DNA of 63,120 nt, the filler included, from Sphacelaria rigidula (lineage: Eukaryota), in assembly GCA_964200075.2 (NCBI GenBank). It is 10 parts of 10 records of this genome, joined end to end, with 100 filler letters (N's around TTAATTAATTAA, not from the genome) between each part and the next. Parts side by side here need not be neighbours in the genome. Positions count along the whole stretch, not along the records: positions 6,324 to 12,545 come from CAXNAA020021409.1; 9 more parts are not named here. The stretch is one strand, 5' to 3'. Made by a program: the position numbers and the translations under genes. The notes below the pieces were generated by a model. That model did not search any database and was not told the DNA's origin. It saw nothing but the letters and a program-made list of their open reading frames with translations. This document shows positions 6,471-36,495 of this stretch, in pieces. Every line of letters starts with the position of its first letter. Position 1 is the first letter of the stretch.

Positions 6471-6829
6471 TATTATTCGGTGTGCTGGTTAGATTATTGG
6501 CATGCAGTGGCTGTTTATAGCGCGAACTTGAAAAAAAACAGACAAGTATGTACGCGACATTGGCATTGCTCCTGCTGTCGTCGTTGTCGTCTTCACATGA
6601 AGGACCACTTCGATCTCTTCTGTGCAGCAAATTCTAACATCCTTGCTGGGGATCTGATGATGCGGACGTCTTCCGTGGTCACCGCCTGTCTACCCAAAAC
6701 AAGGTATAAGAAAAACATGGGAAAATATAATAAAAATAGGGCCCAGAAAAATCAACATTATCGTTGATTGGCTCTCCTCAGATGTGTGTGAATTATATCA
6801 CTGCAATAACTATTGCTTGTGGCAGGGAT

Positions 6830-7210
6830 TGCACATGCACGCAGTGTGTGCAATCCCTACAGAGCGGTCAGTATAGTGCACAATCGCACACTACCATCGT
6901 GACAAGTGCATCAGTACACTGTATGGTAGGGTAAAGGGTATCTCTCGATTGCGTACATCTCTGCACATATTTCATTGATCTGAGCAAGTACAAGCTGGGT
7001 CGGCCAAAGAACCCACAGGGTCAAATGATCATACATTTTGAATTGCACTGGTTCTGGGCAAGCTGAGCATACTCTTGTAATCGGCTAGATATGGCGATCA
7101 CCCGGAGCCAACCCAGGTGAGGAATCCGCGAAGTTGATGTGAAATTCGCGCTTCCGTGTATGCATTTCTTTGTGACAGAGCCTTGTGTTGGCTCTTTCGA
7201 AAATTTCTCA
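6830..7210 (-). pseudogene. Possible decayed MULE transposase C-terminus
   Basis: Minus strand reads VCDCALY*PLCRDCTHCVH, a SWIM-like CxC...CxH motif with an internal stop. Otherwise weak. Confidence 0.25.
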
Positions 7211-7482
7211 CATGATGAACAGAATCACTGTAGCTCTCGGAGTGAACAGAAAAGTGGTGAAGGTCCCACTACGTTTGTCATTGTCGTTTGAGTGTTACAG
7301 CCGAAGCTCACATTACATCAAAGGTAACTTTGTATGCAGAGTGACCTTGGCGCAAAAATCTGAAAATATCGTCACGCAGAGGTTTTGACGATATTTGACC
7401 CGTAACTTGCAAGGAACTGGCGGACGAATCTATCGCAGCTTCGTTTTTTTGTTACTCGTCGACTTCCGCTCAAAATGTACTT

Positions 7483-7780
7483 GACAATGTTCCGTGAATT
7501 TGAGAGTCTAGGATAGGATTGAGAGTGAGATGCGATCAATCAATGAATGACCTAGTGTCAGTTCCGAAATGCCCTCTTGACCTTACATACGCTTTCTGTG
7601 GTGGCTTGCCACGAAAGCCTTGATACCCTTGAGTAGGATGTCGATGTGTAGCTATAAGCACACGACTGACTGTGTTACAGACAAAAAAAACCCCACAAAA
7701 TGAAAAAATGGCAAGTCAGAGCGAAGAATAGAACTCGTTGAAAATCAACGCAAGACTCTCAATATCACGAAATCATTGTT
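7483..7780. mobile_element. MITE family C, ~300 bp
   Basis: Imperfect TIRs ACAATGTTCCGTGAATTTGAGAG ... CTCTCAATATCACGAAATCATTGT. Colinear copy at 23250-23548 and a truncated copy at 63049-63120. Confidence 0.75.
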
Positions 7781-7976
7781 ATTCGTGGATAACATCAAGG
7801 TGCTCGTATCTCGGCGAAAAAAAGAAGTAGAAACGATTGTGTCGTGTATATGTGCTGGCCAGTTCCTTGAAAACCACGTGTGAAAACAATCAGGATGCAA
7901 CTCTGAAAAGTGAGCTCTGCTCGGCGGTTCTGGCGAATCCCCGCTTTCTTGGCCGGTTCATGTTGTAGCAGTCTAC

Positions 7977-8318
7977 TCATTCCTCCAGGGGCACCAACGA
8001 CGCACCCGGCCTACCTCCACACAACCATCGACAATCGGTGGTGATCTTGCAAAAACAGCGAGCACTGGAGGTACGAACCAATCCTAGACGTCCAAAAACA
8101 CCATGATCAGCGCCGGCACGACTGCCACCGCCGTCATTCCTCGCCCCTTTTTCATTAGTATGGGTGTCACTCCACCCGGGTGCGTTTTTGGCTCTCGGGC
8201 GATTGCATGCCGCCGCCCCCGAGGTGTCGGCTACTTTGGTGAGGAAGTGCATGGTCACCAGAATCCATGTCGACAGTGCCACGGAATACATGGCCACGAA
8301 ACAAATCAGAGGTGTGTC
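7977..8318 (-). CDS. EGF-like + 7TM (GPCR-like) protein, exon 3 (TM7, C-terminal tail, stop)
   Basis: AACAG| acceptor in phase 0, matching the exon 2 donor; DTPLICFVAMYSVALSTWILVTMHFL; TGA at 7979-7977. Confidence 0.72.
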   Translation of the reverse strand, partial: DTPLICFVAMYSVALSTWILVTMHFLTKVADTSGAAACNRPRAKNAPGWSDTHTNEKGARNDGGGSRAGADHGVFGRLGLVRTSSARCFCKITTDCRWLCGGRPGASLVPLEE

Positions 8319-8517
8319 CTGTTTTATTCGGAGAGCAAGACAGGGTGGGGGAAAGCGCTCAGTGAACAGTCAACGGTGGCTGTGGCAGGCACAGCTTGAG
8401 AATGCTGACCACGACTGATTGACTCTGGGACAGCTTGATTGTCACTTGTGGCAATAGGCAAGCTGCGTAATGTCACATCTGGTTGAATGCACTGCATACG
8501 TGGCGGCAGGATCTTAC

Positions 8518-9589
8518 CGACACGAGAGTTCCCGGTATAAGGGTCATGACGACAATCACCAGCACCACCACAAGAATTCCAACGGCGGATGTGGTGAGTA
8601 TCATCAGCTTCTTCTTTGTACCCGCGTAGACATTCTTCACTCGTTGCTCGGTGTTGAAAACACCGCCAGTGCTATCCGCATCATCCCTATCGTCGAATGA
8701 TGTGTACAGACGCTGGGCTGCTATCGCTAGGCGCCTGCGAGCATGACCAACTCTTCTGGGAATAACGCGCGTTGTCGGGTGGGAAGACGTGGAATTTCCC
8801 ACATATCTGCATATCCCCGCTGACGGCGTCCGTTTCCCCCTTAGTCTAGTATCCGTGTTCTTGCTGGGTTGAGCAACACTGGAACATCTGCTTCCGCCAG
8901 AATGTCCAGCGGCGGCTGTTGTCATTAGTTCTCCGAGATGGTGAAGTGATCCCTCGGGGGTCACGCGTAGGCTTTTCTCCTTTGCTTCTAATAAATCCAA
9001 AACTGGAAACTTTACTGTCGTTAGCGACATGCAATCCAGAGCTGTCATTCTATGGCTAGTATTGGGGCTGTTTAGAGTGCAGCTGCTTCCATTCCTTGTT
9101 GAGGTTGGCGCCTGCTGGCGCAGGTCTTCATGTGGCAGCGGTTGCTGTTGTCGCTTCCGCTGCTGCCACGAAGCACGGCGTTGGTGATCATCCGTCGGTG
9201 CCTGCGATGTATTCTCGCTCGTAGACCACAAGTGCGCGGTGCTTGGACGCTGTTGTGACAATAGCGCAGACGGTACTGACAGGGGTTCTGAACTCCCTCT
9301 CGGAAACGCAGGAGCAGAAGATACGATGGAAACTACACTTCCATGTCCTGCGAGCTCATATTTGCCCACTGTTTTTCTTGACTCACGTCTGAGAATATTG
9401 GGGCGGAAGGCTTCTGAAAATGAACCATCGGGTACTGGTTCTGGTACTCCCGTTCTCCGAGGATTTTTGAGGGAGCGTACCCTCTCCGCTTCTCCAATAA
9501 CGTTCTTCAGGGTCCCGTTGATGTATACGATTATCATAGCGACGAGGACAGCAGCCGGTACGATTGTGATTGACATCATCGCTCGCCCC
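8518..9589 (-). CDS. EGF-like + 7TM (GPCR-like) protein, exon 2 (TM5, long loop, TM6)
   Basis: AAG| acceptor in the phase matching exon 1 (CG+G = Arg); 1072 nt open; hydrophobic helices at both ends; ends TCG|GTAAGA. Confidence 0.78.
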
Positions 9590-10427
9590 CTTTGTTGTTC
9601 GTTATCGCCCAAAATATTTACAGCGATGAAGGGGGAGAGGGGGGGCATATGAGGCTCAGGACAGCATCCTCGGAATGGAACTCGCTTTCATGCCTTTCGT
9701 CAAATCCCCTCACGCAATAGTAGAACAAAATCTGGCATATATGGTACCTCTTCAAAGCATACTGTGTACCTTTTGTTACACCTTAAACCCCCCATCTTCC
9801 TTGGGACGAGTCTGCAGTTTTGAGGGATCATTTCATGTCTCCCCCGGTACGTGTCTGCATTCTTGGTGTCGCGGATTAGATTTCCACTTGCGCACCGCGT
9901 CTACTTCCGTCAAATGTGTCTTCTACTCACCCCCCGAGCTTTTCAACGACATAAATCAGATGCTCCTGGAGATAATGAAACGTACCTGCTGCAGATGGAA
10001 GGCTCAACTACGCCCAAGCCAATTTTGTGATTAACCGACCACACTACCGGGCGTTCTGTAGCGCTAATACCACGATATATAACACATGTTCTAGAGTCTA
10101 ATCATATAAGGTAGCTTGCGATGAAAATGAGTTCGTTACTGTTGTGTACGACACTGTCCGGTGCTATACACGTTCGCCACGAAAGACCGCAGATACGGGT
10201 AATCAACAAATACAAGTAACCGTACTAGGTGATCCACGCCTCTCCGTGGTAACTAATATCGATTGCATTCGGATACCGTCGGAAACTGCAGTAACAGCTT
10301 TGTCAGGTAACAACGCTTATACTTGCGACTGCGCACTACTGTGTCTGCAATTCATTGGTGTTGTTGAGGTTCGCTCAAACGAGGCACAAGAGATCTATGT
10401 GCGTTTCGCGATCCACGATCCACTCAC

Positions 10428-11254
10428 CGTGTAGCGTTGAACTTGCCGACCACCCCAATCAACATAATGTGCACCCAACACAACGCGACCATCACCGCAA
10501 TTATGACGCGATGCTCGCTGCCCCACGTCGTCACGAGCGTCGAAAGCGAGGTCTGCTTCATGAGCCTCACAGGCAAGGTAAACAACCACAGCCTCACGGA
10601 AACCAGCACACTAACGAAGCCGCAGCACACCGAGAACGTCAGCATAGGAAATAGTAGCGTCTGAAGTGACACCCCGGTGTTCCACCACGCGGCTGCGTGA
10701 TACATGAGTATTGTCGCTCCCCATGCGATGCTAATCCAGACAAATATGCGGATGTTTCGCACGCGGGAGATCAATCTGTAAGCTGTTCCTGCAGCCGCGA
10801 CTCCGCCACCGCCGCGGGCCCTGCCGCTGGCAACAAGATGGCCCGTGCGAGAAGCCGAAGCATCCCTCCATTGGCGAGACCGCCGGAAAGCAACGGTGAC
10901 ACACGCTGCAGCGAGCACGCAGCCAAATGCGTGACATACAGTACTTGCTGCTATGGACTCGCAGGCTGGACGTCCTAGGACGTCTACTGTAGAGTATCCT
11001 GGATCGCATCTGCACCGGAATGATGTTGATGATAACACCCCGCTGCCACTACTGCTGCTAGTAGTGTCGTTGCTGTCGTTTTCGCTTGCAGTGCACTCTC
11101 CCTCACCGCCGTACAGGGGATGTCTACATCCCCTCACACAGATCGACATCGAAGCGTGCGATAGGCCACATTCTCCTTCATTCAGTGGCGCGCTCGGACA
11201 GGTCATCTCTCTATTCCTAACGTGCGTACCCCCCAGTTTGTTGTTAATATCCAT
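10428..11254 (-). CDS. EGF-like + 7TM (GPCR-like) protein, exon 1 (EGF-like module, TM1-TM4)
   Basis: Open frame with CVRGC...GGEGEC...CRCDPGY...C followed by four hydrophobic helices; ends CG|GTGAGT. Start uncertain: ATG at 11254 chosen, but the frame stays open to 11509. Confidence 0.75.
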
Positions 11255-12707
11255 GTGCCGATTTTTTGCGGTGTAATTTTCGTGTGTTGGGCTCAGTATC
11301 AGTATTGCGCCAAAAAAAAAGTTCGGAACAGAATTCGACCTCTTTTTGCCCCAATATGTACGCACGCACTGTGCAACCCCAGATTCATCAATATGAGGTT
11401 GTTGTCTGCTGTCTAAATGATATGTGGTCGAAATTTCAGCGCGTAAAAGCACTGACAGCGCTTGCACGGCCGCAGGCGACACCAAGATGAGTATCGCGTA
11501 GAATGACATGATCCAGAGTGTGCCCTATACGGATCGGTGTCTGTTTGCCGGGGCAGGAGCCACCCAGCAGGTCATGATGTGGAAATGAGCGCATCTGCAT
11601 GTTAACATATGCATCCACTGACGTCTCACGCAGTCTGAGCGGCGGAGACGCCCGTTTTAAGGGCATATCGACGGTATTGCCCAAATTATGCGTTTCTGGG
11701 GGCGCGGCTTACGCACCCCCCACCACGTGCCGCCGTACCGGAAATATGGTGTTTATGTTGTGGTCTACCTCTATGCCAAGTTTCAGGCCAGTTCGTCCAG
11801 ACATGGTGGAGAAATCGACAAGCACAGTAACGCTCGACGTGTACTGAAAATACAGTACTGCATCGTCGAAAGATACATGAGGTGCGTACGAGCTGGGCCA
11901 GCCTGAAGACGGATTTATGCTCTAAAAGCAATATCTCATCGCCATAGACGAGTTGGGCCGTGATCCACATATCGTATAAATTGTCTAACCAAGGTGAAGA
12001 TGCCCATCTGCTCAAAAATTTGGGCCCATATTTTCTCGTTGATTAAACCCCATGTCTAGTGATTTGTGATGAAGCTCGGAGGCGTTGCAAGATATACGCT
12101 GTGCGGGTCTGCTCGTAGACCCTGAGTCCCGTGACGCGTTGTTACCGCGTTTGCTACTGTCGTTAGTTAGGATTGTTCAGCCGCGGCCACAGGCCGCGTT
12201 GAGCCACCTCAATCAGTTACTGCCCTTGCCGTGGTCTACCCTGGGCCATCACTACGCTCTGCTCTTATGGCTGCACTGCGGCTGTACTGAGTAAGAGAGC
12301 TGCTTGTAGATATAACATGACGCTATGAAACACGCGAGTTCTTCATCAACCGTCTGCACATAAATTATTGTAACCCTTTTAGGACCGGGCCTCCAGAACC
12401 ACCAATGAGGCTGGTCAGGAATGACGTGTCTGACGTCTAAACGAAACAGTGAAGTGTTGCTAAAAATCCCCGTATGTAACTGCAGGGTTATGACGAAGAC
12501 AGAAAGTTTCATCTGGTCTGTTTTCAGGTGCAGGGTGCGCATTAGNNNNNNNNNNNNNNNNNNNNNNNNNNNNNNNNNNNNNNNNNNNNTTAATTAATTA
12601 ANNNNNNNNNNNNNNNNNNNNNNNNNNNNNNNNNNNNNNNNNNNNTGAGACCGCGGACGTGTCCCGAGGAAGGGGAGGGGTTCAAAGTGTGAGGGAAAAA
12701 ACTAAAT

Positions 12708-16478: not shown

Positions 16479-17047
16479 TGCTCCCGTGACGATTTCACAT
16501 GAAACAGTGCCGATTACTGTTAGCGTGCGTACACCGTGGGGGGCTGTGGAGTTGCAGCCCAATACTTCGACTGTCACGCCCGGTAGGGACAACGTGGTTC
16601 TATTTGGGATGGGGACGATGAAGGAGCTCGGGATTGATCTATACCCGCTGGCGTTGGACAGGTTACGCCCGCGTGCTGTACCGGTACAAACCAGCGTGGA
16701 AAATCCCAGCTATCTTGCTGCAAGGCGTGTGATCGTATCCATACGGTTATTCCAGAGTCCCGTAATTGGCGCTCTGGAATGGCCGTATGGATACGATCAC
16801 ACGCCTTGCAGCAAGATAGCTAGGGTTTTCCACGCCAGTTTGCACCGGCACAGCACGCGGACGTAACTTATCCAACGCCAGCGGGTATAGATCAATCCCG
16901 AGCTCCTTCATCGTCGCCATCCCAAATAGAACCACGTTGTCCCTACCGGGCATGGCAGCCAAAGTATTGGGCTGCAACTCCACAGCCCCCCACGGCGTAC
17001 GTACGCTAACAGTAGTCACCGTTTTGTGTGTAACCGTCACGGGAGCA
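16479..17047. repeat. Long inverted repeat (foldback) of the protease region
   Basis: Arms 16479-16757 and 16772-17047, 14-nt loop. Both strands encode a near-identical peptide (VRTPWGAVELQPNT...SYLAARRVIVSIR). Confidence 0.92.
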
Positions 17048-18514
17048 CCCGTGGTGGTCTGTGTCGTTTGCGGTCCGTTTTCGAACGGAATCTGAAGCTG
17101 AGCGCCACCAAACTGCGAAGACATCTGTTCTAGCGACCCCATACCGATCGACGTTAGCGCGGACTCAAAATTCAAAATAGCGCGGGCCATGAACGAACCT
17201 AAGGAACCAGGCAAGGATGAATCTGCGCGTAAACACTCAGCCTTGCGATCGACAGGTACCGCGCCTGCCGAAGAACCCTGGTCGGTCCCAAGAGTCACCC
17301 GACGCCAGAGCTGCCCTCCCGCAGTTGACATTGATAACTGAGATTCGTCGGTCCAACCAGACCAAGTCGCCGAATATGCAGACGGCGCTGTTACAGCCGT
17401 CGCAGCAGTAGGGAATGCACCAGTCACGGATCCTGCCTGGCCGAGGGGTTGCGAACTATTGGCTCTAGCACTCCCCACCGGTGTATTTGCATTTTCCACG
17501 TACCCTGTCCGCCCCGCTACGGACGAACGATAAGATCCAGAGTCACCACCTGATGACGTAGTGGGAGAAACAGCAGCGGAGGAACCACCATCCGCCGCCG
17601 ATTGCTTGCTACCGCGGCCGCCGCGCCCGCGTCCCTGGTTGGCACGGCCCCGTCCACCGTGACAACCGCCCCGAGATCCTGATCAGTCTCGCGCATTGCC
17701 CTGTGCAGCACCTTGAGCGCAAGGCTTGGGGCAATCCTTCGTCATATGTCCGGCGTCGCCGCAGTTGTAACAAGCGCGAGTGGACGACGTTCACGAAGAC
17801 GGCTGCTGTTTCTGTTGCTGTTGCTGTTTGCGGCGCCCACCACCTGCACTTGTTGCAAAATCGCGCTGGCTATGTGCTGCAATAAACTCCCACTGGTCGG
17901 CCGCCTCAAACATGCTTTTGAACACCACGGTCGGGTTTTGTTTTCAACCGCCAACATACATTAGTACGCTTCTAACATACGCCTTGAATTCTGGAGGCGA
18001 AATCCCGTCCACCAAAGCTATGGAAACCGACTCGACCGAGCCTGGCAACCACCTCCTGTCCTCCGCACGGTACGTGGCTCGCACCGTGAGGTTTTCTGCG
18101 AAAACCTTTTCGATCGCTGAAGTGATCATCATCGCACGATCCTTCACGGATTTTCCACCGCTATGTGGCATAGTAAGAACTCTGCGTACAGCCCGCGCAG
18201 TGTGATGCTTGCCGCCGGTTGTGGTGTACCCGGCATGCTGCTTCACAGCATCAAGCAATTCGTCGGGGGTCATAGCCCGACGGTCCTTGTACATTTCTTC
18301 GAAGCACCGTTGAAATACAGGCAGGGATGAGTTGTCCGATGCTCACTCTCTCATGCCGTATGACTTCTGTTGCATTGGCCGAATATACCCTCTTTATGTA
18401 GTTAAGATATTTGGCACAGAAATTTCTTGACGCCTCTTCAGTCCACACTTCGCCATACTTGGGCGACTCTAGTGGCTCACCTAACACCAGCGGCGCTGCC
18501 GCCGTGTGAGCCAT
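16772..18514 (-). pseudogene. Frameshifted gag + aspartic protease
   Basis: CCHC zinc knuckle CYNCGDAGHMTKDC at 17772-17731. Retropepsin-like AILNFESA (decayed AILDSGSA) and VVLFGMATMKELG. Broken over several ORFs. Confidence 0.8.
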
Positions 18515-19061: not shown

Positions 19062-19452
19062 CCCCACATATTTCAGTGCCAATGTTATAATGCTCCCCTC
19101 CCAGATTCGGATGCCTTGGGTTAACGAAACGTCCAATATGAGAACAACTTGAGAGTCGTTTTCAGAGTGATGAATAAAGTAACGAAGAAATCGCAGACAT
19201 CGATCGTCTCTCTCGTTGTGTTTGTCCACCAACAACCTATGACCGGATAGTTGATTCTTCTGTGTTTTTTTGCGGGTTAATTTCCCTCCTTTTTTGTTCG
19301 TTTAATTTCTCTCTTTTTTTCGTCTTTCGTCTTTGTCTATGTCTGTCCAGGGGATCCTGAGTCGTGCTGTGTTCATGTATGTGAGTGTCTAATTTTTAAT
19401 TTAATGCAATCTCTCTCTTTTTTTCTTCTTTTTTTGTCTATCATCCATCCAG

Positions 19453-19905
19453 GTTACCCTAAGTGGTGCATTGGGGCAAAACAGCGGCAGCAGCAGCGGC
19501 CTAGGAGGAGGGGGAGGAGGAGGTGTGGGAAATGGTGGGGGTCCGTCATTGGGAAACGGCGGTGCCGGAGGCGTTGGCAGGCGACTGAACGGTAGCAACA
19601 AGCAATTCCAAATGAACGGATCCGGATCTTACAACAACAGCGGCGGTAGTGGAGGGTTCCTACAGAGAGTCACTAACAACCACACCAACAACAGCGGTCA
19701 AAGTTCAAGAAATGGCGGTGGGGGAAGTCATGGTACCTTCCGGAGTGGAGGCGGAGGCGGAGGCGGAGGGGGAGGGGGAGGTCGGAGGTCGGGTGGGGGG
19801 GGCGGAGGGCGGGGAGGCCCGAGGGGAAGAGGCGGCGGGAACAAGATTAATGTTTCTACGTTGGATCTTGATGCGCAATTGGATGCGCACATGGCTAAGC
19901 GGTAG
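19453..19905 (+). CDS. Last exon of an ALY/REF (THOC4/Yra1)- or Chtop-like RGG-rich RNA-binding protein
   Basis: Long pyrimidine tract and CCAG| acceptor; Gly/Arg-rich region; C-terminal STLDLDAQLDAHM motif typical of the FoP-duplication / UAP56-binding motif; TAG stop. Confidence 0.8.
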   Translation, partial: VTLSGALGQNSGSSSGLGGGGGGGVGNGGGPSLGNGGAGGVGRRLNGSNKQFQMNGSGSYNNSGGSGGFLQRVTNNHTNNSGQSSRNGGGGSHGTFRSGGGGGGGGGGGGRRSGGGGGGRGGPRGRGGGNKINVSTLDLDAQLDAHMAKR

Positions 19906-35511: not shown

Positions 35512-36495
35512 CCTTGCTTGACGGAGAGGCCCTCCGTCGCACGCGTTGTTAATCCTGACACAGACGAGTTTTGCCGTCCCCCAGTACAGACGTTCCTCGT
35601 GCTTTCATCGTCATGGAGGGGTTGATTAACATTCCCGCAAACCGCCGATTTCATCGAAGTTTTGCACGGTGTGTTTTGTGCAAGGGTCCGACAAATCAAT
35701 GATTCGTCTGGAAATTAATTAGTTTTAGTGTAATTGATTCGAATCGTACGAATCAATCCCTAGGCTTCGTTTTCAGTGTTGCATCGCAGGTACGCGCAGT
35801 CCAGACACGTGGACTGGCGCAAAAGTTGCGTGGACACCCCTTGGACCAGCGGTCAACTTTTTTTTCTTCCTTTTGGGCAATCAGGCCGAAGAAATCGTGG
35901 ATTTGATGATTCGAACCCGTAATGATTTGTCCTAACCGTGGATTTGTGCATGTGTTGTATTCCCAGCTATGTGGGACACAAGAGCTGTGTGCGTGCGTGC
36001 GTGCGTGCGTGTGTGTGATACCAAAAGCTGTGTGCATCCTTGATGTTGGGGCGACATAAGAGCTCTATTCCTGTGGTCCAGTTATCGTCAACGCACGGAG
36101 CCTCTTGTTGGCGAGCCAAGTAATAATACTGGTGGTTGTTGTTCTCCCTTTTATTATCGATTGTTAAAAGGTGGGGGGGGGGGGGGGGGGGGGGGGCTTC
36201 ATTTTTTTTTTCTGTTTAGTGTTTGTGTATTGTCAACATGCATAGAGGCCCGCGGGACGGGTCTCGGTANNNNNNNNNNCATTTGTTGCTTGCCTTAGTC
36301 ATTTGACCATTGACCACGCATCCCTTTCGAGACGGAGCACCGTATCAAATTTGTTAGTGTGTGTGTCTGTGCGTTTTCTCCCTAATATTTCGACGTGCAC
36401 GTGCACCTCCGTTCGTTCGTTGTTATGTTCTTCTGTCTCCCGCCTTTCAACGTCTTATGCCGTAATCTTGGGTGGTGGGGAAAAACAAAATGCAG

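Follow-up and report, generated by a model that had tools for sequence, protein, structure and literature searches.

In a 63,120-nt stretch of Sphacelaria rigidula DNA (assembly GCA_964200075.2; ten parts of ten records joined end to end, hereafter the window), the minus-strand locus at 7977..11254 is a genuine split gene whose product is a membrane protein in which a small Cys-rich domain lies outside a seven-helix core resembling that of a receptor; its splicing and its function are established in part. The reading that we favor, with modest confidence, is that of a full seven-helix product spliced from three exons. Modeling of a homologue suggests that this product would be a receptor with the fold of a G protein-coupled receptor (GPCR), in which a single epidermal growth factor (EGF)-like module is set directly on the first transmembrane helix (TM1) without an intervening GAIN/GPS domain. 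The parts of the gene are as follows.

10428..11254, minus strand: exon 1 as translated in the original prediction, 827 nt, with its ATG at 11254 and followed by GTGAGT
9590..10427, minus strand: proposed intron 1, 838 nt, GTGAGT ... AAG, the AAG ending at 9590
8518..9589, minus strand: exon 2, 1072 nt, followed by GTAAGA; TM5, a 304-aa loop, and TM6
8319..8517, minus strand: proposed intron 2, 199 nt, GTAAGA ... CAG, the CAG ending at 8319
7977..8318, minus strand: exon 3, 342 nt including the stop codon; TM7 and a cytoplasmic tail of 87 aa that includes a Cys-bearing motif
7693..7976, minus strand: 3′ untranslated region of at least this length; RNA-like contigs are colinear over 7693-8318, 7803-8318, and 7843-8318

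The three minus-strand pieces, when joined by script, run in phase as had been claimed, giving 2241 nt and 746 residues with a terminal stop as the only stop codon. Open frames of 404 and 366 aa are the two longest of the whole window, and exon 2 falls within the 404-aa frame. Mononucleotide shuffling of the window, repeated 20 times, never gave an open reading frame (ORF) longer than 311 aa, a length that both frames exceed, and the locus is not a product of chance. Exon 1, judged from homologues that reach an E-value of 4.3e-40, is clearly a real gene piece.

These homologues were found in a phmmer search of exon 1 against 1.84 billion representative proteins, which returned 16 matches at E ≤ 1e-3. 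The best is P0004 (341 aa, E 4.3e-40, 43% identity), and P0005 (E 1e-26) and P0006 (E 1.9e-13) are further top matches. Those that carry a species name are gene models of Ectocarpus sp. 13, sp. 4, and sp. 12 and the Chrysoparadoxa australica protein P0009 (364 aa); the remaining matches come from unlabeled contigs. Fourteen of the 16 were used for alignments, with P0007 and P0014 excluded because they are tandem-repeat proteins that are similar only around the C-x-C-x2-G-Y core. A word-index search with P0009 returned P0020 (366 aa) as its sole match, a paralogue with 33% identity over 97% of the length, and a profile search with alignment A1 returned six matches, all of them family fragments. 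When a profile of the two Chrysoparadoxa proteins was run against every stop-to-stop frame in the window (2526 frames), the exon-1 frame was the sole match (E 1.3e-13, profile positions 3-220). By sequence comparison, exons 1 and 3 belong to this family, which appears to be an unnamed one with members in Ectocarpus spp. (brown algae), C. australica, and unlabeled contigs. The idea of a divergent, possibly lineage-specific family has thus held up, with named relatives solely from Ectocarpus spp. and Chrysoparadoxa. Stramenopile relatives with the same EGF-7TM layout, which the original prediction had suggested seeking, do exist: the two full-length Chrysoparadoxa members show the layout, with short loops.

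Other searches delimit the family. Because a word-index search of the protein collections found no longer protein containing exon 1 and no match is closer than 43%, the locus has no annotated product in the collections searched. No Pfam family scores above threshold in the window pieces, P0004, P0005, P0006, or P0009; exon 2 has no significant match in P0004 (best E 0.25), and the 304-aa loop itself has no detectable homologue. A scan of metagenomes with a pattern from alignment A3 gave 66 pattern matches, none of which was confirmed, and a metagenome locus reached from P0010 (L001) was not judged a relative, its tblastn matches being short and weak (best E 5e-5, 16-57 residues). An Rfam scan of the window was negative. 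In the literature, subscription papers and bioRxiv supplements being outside reach, no EGF-like 7TM family was found described for brown algae or stramenopiles.

The splicing of the gene was followed in four sequencing runs, all examined as assembled contigs; X1-X3 belong to one study and their RNA nature is guessed, and the parts of exons 1 and 2 that lack X1-X3 contig cover carry no information. The contig of the fourth run, X4, extends over 7501-11451 through introns as well as exons, the pattern expected of genomic DNA. At the exon-1 donor (10428), the genomic-contig ORF homologues P0005, P0015, and P0021 end just after the same F/L-x-x-x-R, a shared end point that a conserved GTGA donor would give. 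At the exon-3 acceptor, contigs of X1-X3 that cover 7843-8318, 7693-8318, and 7803-8318 each stop or depart from the window precisely at 8318. The match to Ectocarpus P0006 likewise begins with the first codon of exon 3 (residues 196-260, window 8318-8124; tblastn E 9e-7). The AG at 9591-9590, the proposed intron-1 acceptor, is the first AG downstream of a C/T-rich tract. Exon 2 is a single open frame, in phase at either end, and RNA-like contigs lie over 8623-8773 and 9348-9542; the final 46 residues of the exon are similar to the part of P0006 just ahead of the exon-3 homologue (pairwise E 0.008), so that P0006 joins exon-1-like, exon-2-end-like, and exon-3-like parts in the order of the window. 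It is from such evidence that we infer the boundaries of exon 2. The locus is probably spliced and weakly expressed. Cover is very low and patchy over exons 1 and 2 (depth 1-4) versus a depth of 8-15 over exon 3. The use of the four splice sites first proposed is therefore upheld for the donor at 10428, through the ends of homologous ORFs, and for the acceptor at 8318, through the contigs and P0006, but not for the acceptor at 9589, which a contig crosses unspliced, or for the donor at 8518, for which no joint to 8318 was seen.

The features of the predicted protein, numbered from the ATG at 11254, are as follows.

10961..11140, minus strand: EGF-like six-cysteine module, residues 39-98, interrupted between Cys3 and Cys4 by a Ser-rich insert of 17 residues
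10448..10942, minus strand: TM1-TM4 with intervening loops, placed by Kyte-Doolittle peaks, the Chrysoparadoxa profile (E 1.3e-13 over HMM positions 3-220), and four long helices in an AlphaFold2 (AF2) model
10547..10594, minus strand: the most conserved family motif, R-L-W-L-F-x-L-P-x-R-L-M...T-S, shared between loop 2 and the end of TM3 on the cytoplasmic side
9579-9520, minus strand: TM5, in exon 2
9519-8608, minus strand: 304-aa Ser/Arg/Thr/Pro-rich loop, in exon 2
8607-8536, minus strand: TM6, in exon 2
8309-8241, minus strand: TM7, in exon 3

In terms of the outer domain, alignment A2 shows conservation of six cysteines and of a C-x-C-x2-G-[YF] pattern, and the Ser-rich insert is not present in P0004, P0009, or P0020. 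The Pfam models hEGF, cEGF, and EGF are the sole models to appear on the three pieces of the gene, all below threshold (E 0.026-0.096; hEGF at E 0.026 scores 15.4 bits versus a cut-off of 29.3). On P0009 the EGF model likewise stays below its threshold (E 0.027, 15.2 bits versus a cut-off of 21.5), and EGF chains in the Protein Data Bank (PDB) are reached at E 0.59-4.5 only in a sequence-profile search. The structural models place two β-hairpins in this region, with a predicted local distance difference test (pLDDT) score of 80-91 in the model of exon 1. An EGF assignment, although below threshold, is plausible from the cysteine pattern. The Cys-rich, EGF-like N terminus as first described stands in its six-Cys EGF-type pattern, which the homologues keep, but not in two further N-terminal cysteines, which are unconserved.

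Those two cysteines also bear on the start codon. The ATG at 11149-11147 (Met36 in the original numbering) is the likelier start, as those homologues that have the Cys-rich domain at their N terminus give tblastn matches starting at 11149-11125, from Met36 or shortly beyond it; several homologues have a Met 1-4 residues ahead of the first conserved Cys; residues 1-31 have pLDDT < 50 in the exon-1 model; and the two extra cysteines, which lie within the first 35 residues, are not conserved among homologues. The ATG at 11254 that was originally taken as the start is present, but the 35 residues that it would add are unconserved and modeled as disordered. The frame of exon 1 is open upstream as far as 11524. 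An in-frame ATG at 11509 (minus strand) with a hydrophobic, signal-peptide-like stretch was rejected as a start; it lies in high-copy repeat DNA and has no homologue or Pfam support. This repeat, at 11452-12200 just upstream of the gene, is of extremely high copy number in the source organism, and the unique contig ends at 11451: summed X4 contig depth is ~56,000-369,000 over the repeat versus ~73 over the gene, and depth in X1-X3 is high too. A tandem-repeat search and self-BLAST revealed no tandem repeats in 11400-12540 and no second copy of this region in the window.

The seven hydrophobic segments of the original prediction appear as Kyte-Doolittle 19-residue peaks of 1.98, 1.56, 2.26, 2.74, 2.55, 2.98, and 2.03. 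Lys and Arg together number 11, 4, 46, and 13 in the loops and tail proposed to lie inside versus 0, 3, and 0 in the outer loops, and the hydropathy peaks and this charge distribution fit the N-out, C-in layout that had been put forward. Helix count and topology were derived from the Kyte-Doolittle peaks and the Lys/Arg counts of the spliced model and hinge on unconfirmed exon-2 boundaries, and the seven helices of the window's own product are to be taken as predicted. In the homologues P0009 and P0020, seven membrane helices are found with TM5 directly after TM4 and with short loops.

The giant loop between TM5 and TM6 measures 304 aa, rather than the ~320 aa first reported, and its commonest residues are Ser (37), Arg (32), and Thr (27); the KKK described just ahead of TM6 is present. 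Because the same loop is ~75 aa long in the Ectocarpus models and ~10-15 aa in Chrysoparadoxa, its size is a feature of the present lineage and not of the family. Conservation in the family is highest in loop 2 and toward the cytoplasmic end of TM3, where R221, L222, W223, L224, F225, P228, R230, L231, T235, and S236 are invariant among the seven sequences of A3; this motif is a candidate effector-contact surface. In the tail, cysteine positions at 7977-8060 (minus strand) align with cysteines in the tail of P0006, which suggests a conserved tail motif.

The fold was predicted for P0009 with AF2 and a 14-sequence alignment. The model (pLDDT 70.9; predicted template modeling score, pTM, 0.66) reveals a small β-domain followed by seven membrane helices (H50-80, 115-140, 144-173, 195-219, 225-255, 267-293, and 333-346, plus some shorter ones). 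Among the matches listed in a Foldseek search of the PDB, 50 of 50 are GPCRs, with classes A, B, F, and T represented (E 6.8e-3 to 7.1e-2; template modeling (TM) score by query 0.34-0.49). Among those listed in a VIA search, 50 of 50 are likewise GPCR-fold chains, headed by TSHR (Z 15.0), CB1 (14.9), and RXFP1 (14.9), all class A, with no preference for class B over A, D, or T. For the ESM Atlas model of the same protein (pTM 0.67), the best structural row is ADGRF3 (adhesion GPCR, 7tm_2; TM score 0.50). As modeled, P0009 adopts a GPCR-type fold. Exon 1 of the window, modeled by itself (pLDDT 66.9), folds into the EGF-like hairpins and four long helices, and a structure search with this model returned generic helical bundles only. 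The GPCR-type architecture originally claimed therefore holds for the homologue, whose model superposes on solved GPCRs; for the spliced product of the window, the claim of fold rests on homology.

To judge from sequence, no named GPCR class fits the protein, the features looked for in each class having been absent. The adhesion GPCRs of the EGF-TM7 type form the ADGRE/EMR-CD97 group of class B2, and like these the window gene would combine an EGF-like Cys-rich outer module with a predicted seven-helix core of GPCR fold. Unlike these, it has a single EGF-like module and no GAIN/GPS autoproteolysis domain. With ~6-10 residues between the last conserved Cys and TM1, there is no room for a GAIN domain, and Pfam scans of the window pieces and the homologues found no GPS/GAIN, as predicted; unlike adhesion GPCRs, these sequences also have no 7tm_2 match, and a sequence-profile search of the PDB reached ADGRL2 only at E 0.69. 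Muscarinic receptors, of class A, have a long third inner loop, and the long loop between helices 5 and 6 of the window protein, with basic residues before helix 6, resembles this arrangement; the best fold matches of P0009 by Z among those listed are class A as well. Unlike class A GPCRs, the window gene has no 7tm_1 match, no DRY, and no NPxxY. The reported lack of both motifs was confirmed in the translations, where the end of TM3 reads V-R-L-W-L-F and TM7 lacks N-P-x-x-Y. The R/E-L-W-...-L-P at the end of TM3 is, we presume, different in spacing from DRY...P.

Several observations weigh against a full seven-helix, three-exon product of GPCR fold. The first set concerns exon 2. An X1 contig at 9558-9993 (436 nt, depth 4.1) runs unspliced over the 9589/9590 acceptor, colinear with 404 nt of the proposed intron 1 and with the beginning of exon 2; possible sources are a retained intron, pre-mRNA, carried-over DNA, and a transcript that starts internally. 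No 8318-to-8518 joint was seen in the X1-X3 contigs, which have no cover at 8410-8600. Furthermore, the X1 and X2 contigs extend 72 and 65 letters beyond 8318, and because these letters found no place within 6500-12200 at a likeness of 95%, 8518 is not established as the site to which exon 3 is joined in them. The Chrysoparadoxa profile misses TM5-TM7 of the window, and the outer loop between TM4 and TM5 has 3 Lys/Arg within 10 residues. The TM5-containing seven-helix layout, finally, is not seen in the Ectocarpus relatives: the models of P0004 and P0006 run from TM4 straight into the loop without TM5, and P0006 joins only half of TM6 to its exon-3 homologue.

The helix count of the Ectocarpus models, together with the absent 8318-8518 joint and the unspliced exon-2 acceptor, would be accounted for if the window gene belonged to the same family but used other exon-2 boundaries, dropping TM5 and/or TM6 to leave a five- or six-pass protein with the EGF-like cap. 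We regard this as unlikely. The Ectocarpus sequences are predicted gene models, of which one is partial. Both full-length Chrysoparadoxa members (n = 2) have seven helices with TM5 right after TM4. In the window, TM5, the loop, and TM6 share the 404-aa open frame, and the sole AG between TM5 and the segment resembling the Ectocarpus loop would give an out-of-frame join. The absent joint, moreover, does not favor a shorter product either, as any donor within 8319-12200 would show as a joint.

The same contigs could be read in another way, in which the locus does not represent a single functional gene. It might then comprise two transcription units, exon 1 by itself and exons 2 and 3 transcribed from a promoter in intron 1 and starting at the Met-Met of TM5, or it would be a decaying lineage-specific copy with residual transcription. 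A shorter transcript of this kind could have its 5′ end in the 9558-9993 contig, the depth of 1-4 over exons 1 and 2 versus 8-15 over exon 3 would fit, and the codon-position GC of exon 2 is weakly coding-like (GC3 0.50). Libraries with a 3′ bias, however, likewise give higher 3′ cover; the three long frames have no internal stop and meet in phase at both boundaries; and one Ectocarpus model joins the exon-1 and exon-3 homologues in a single protein. We therefore consider it improbable that the locus is anything other than one gene.

The second set of contrary observations concerns the fold. The protein modeled, P0009, is ~28% identical to the window over the exon-1 part. None of its Foldseek matches in the PDB reaches E ≤ 1e-3, the best being 6.8e-3, and no 7TM Pfam family is found at E ≤ 1 for P0001-P0003, P0004-P0006, or P0009. 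A seven-helix protein with a GPCR-like fold need not signal through G proteins, and the product might instead act in an endomembrane or housekeeping capacity in the manner of THH1/TOM1-3, GPR137, and PRRT3, or in adhesion or anchoring. Like these proteins, it is predicted to be seven-helical and GPCR-clan-like without the classical motifs, there being no DRY, NPxxY, or 7tm Pfam signature, and the feature neighbors of P0009 in the ESM Atlas include the THH1_TOM1-3, GPR137_N, and PRRT3 clusters at scores of 0.78-0.81. Such scores fall below the 0.9 that the tool itself sets for a lead, and PF06454 and PF27607 gave no Pfam match at E ≤ 1. Unlike the window protein, THH1/TOM1-3-, GPR137-, and PRRT3-type proteins are not described with an EGF-like cap, and the available text of a source on GPR137 gives it no extra domain (PMC12716839). 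The EGF-like cap and the long Ser/Thr/Arg-rich inner loop would better suit a regulated surface receptor. For these reasons, a role apart from G-protein signaling appears to us rather improbable.

The nearest feature neighbors in the ESM Atlas are uncharacterized haptophyte and ciliate membrane-protein clusters, with scores of 0.94, 0.94, and 0.93 for P0009; the same clusters are nearest to residues 36-275 of exon 1 (0.88, 0.81, and 0.80). EGF_2 occurs in 17% and 27% of the members of two of them. The likeness is one of features, without an alignment or an E-value, and the phmmer search of the 1.84 billion representatives gave no named haptophyte match. Kinship with the haptophyte and ciliate clusters, and with THH1/TOM1-3, GPR137, and PRRT3, is to be treated as a lead only.

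If the seven-helix, three-exon reading is correct, the protein would most likely be a surface or lumen-facing receptor with a cytoplasmic C terminus, the receptor function being our inference from its architecture. The outward EGF-like cap might sense a ligand or a contact and shift the helix bundle, and the invariant TM3/loop-2 motif, R-L-W-L-F-x-L-P-x-R-L-M, could be where the signal is then picked up in the cell interior. The loop of 304 aa, rich in Ser, Arg, and Thr, would probably be a disordered scaffold or regulatory region, regulated by phosphorylation. Coupling to G proteins is speculative.

The window is gene-poor for its size. At 19405-19905 (plus strand), a Gly/Arg-rich 166-aa frame matches Pfam FoP_duplication, the C-terminal domain of Friend of PRMT1 (E 1.7e-5; 25.8 bits versus a cut-off of 24.6), and is probably an exon of a neighboring gene. 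Seven further long frames (197-311 aa, including 16747-17682 on the minus strand) have no Pfam match at E ≤ 0.01. There are 18 paired 44-base N runs with a spacing of 6322 bases (6224, 12546, 18868 onward) and a 10-base run at 36270-36279; the pairs look like masking and not like assembly gaps.

The receptors by which brown algae perceive pheromones, partners, and surroundings are largely unknown, and the family described here supplies specific genes for their study. Such genes can be missed or mis-spliced in genome annotation, as the locus has no counterpart in the protein collections searched and helix content differs in the Ectocarpus models. In the available text of one source, Ectocarpus has six Gα paralogues, and the ectocarpene receptor is described as unidentified and possibly a GPCR (PMC3879662); that of another credits heterokonts with GRK-like kinases and most parts of the pathway (PMC3971589). 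A tentative and bolder proposal, which we think has no great likelihood, is that the family constitutes an undescribed GPCR-fold class of brown algae and sister lineages that signals to their own set of Gα subunits through R-L-W-L-F-x-L-P, with the loop as a regulatory scaffold. If this were true, the family would be a candidate for the brown-algal receptors of pheromones, gamete contact, or cell-wall cues.

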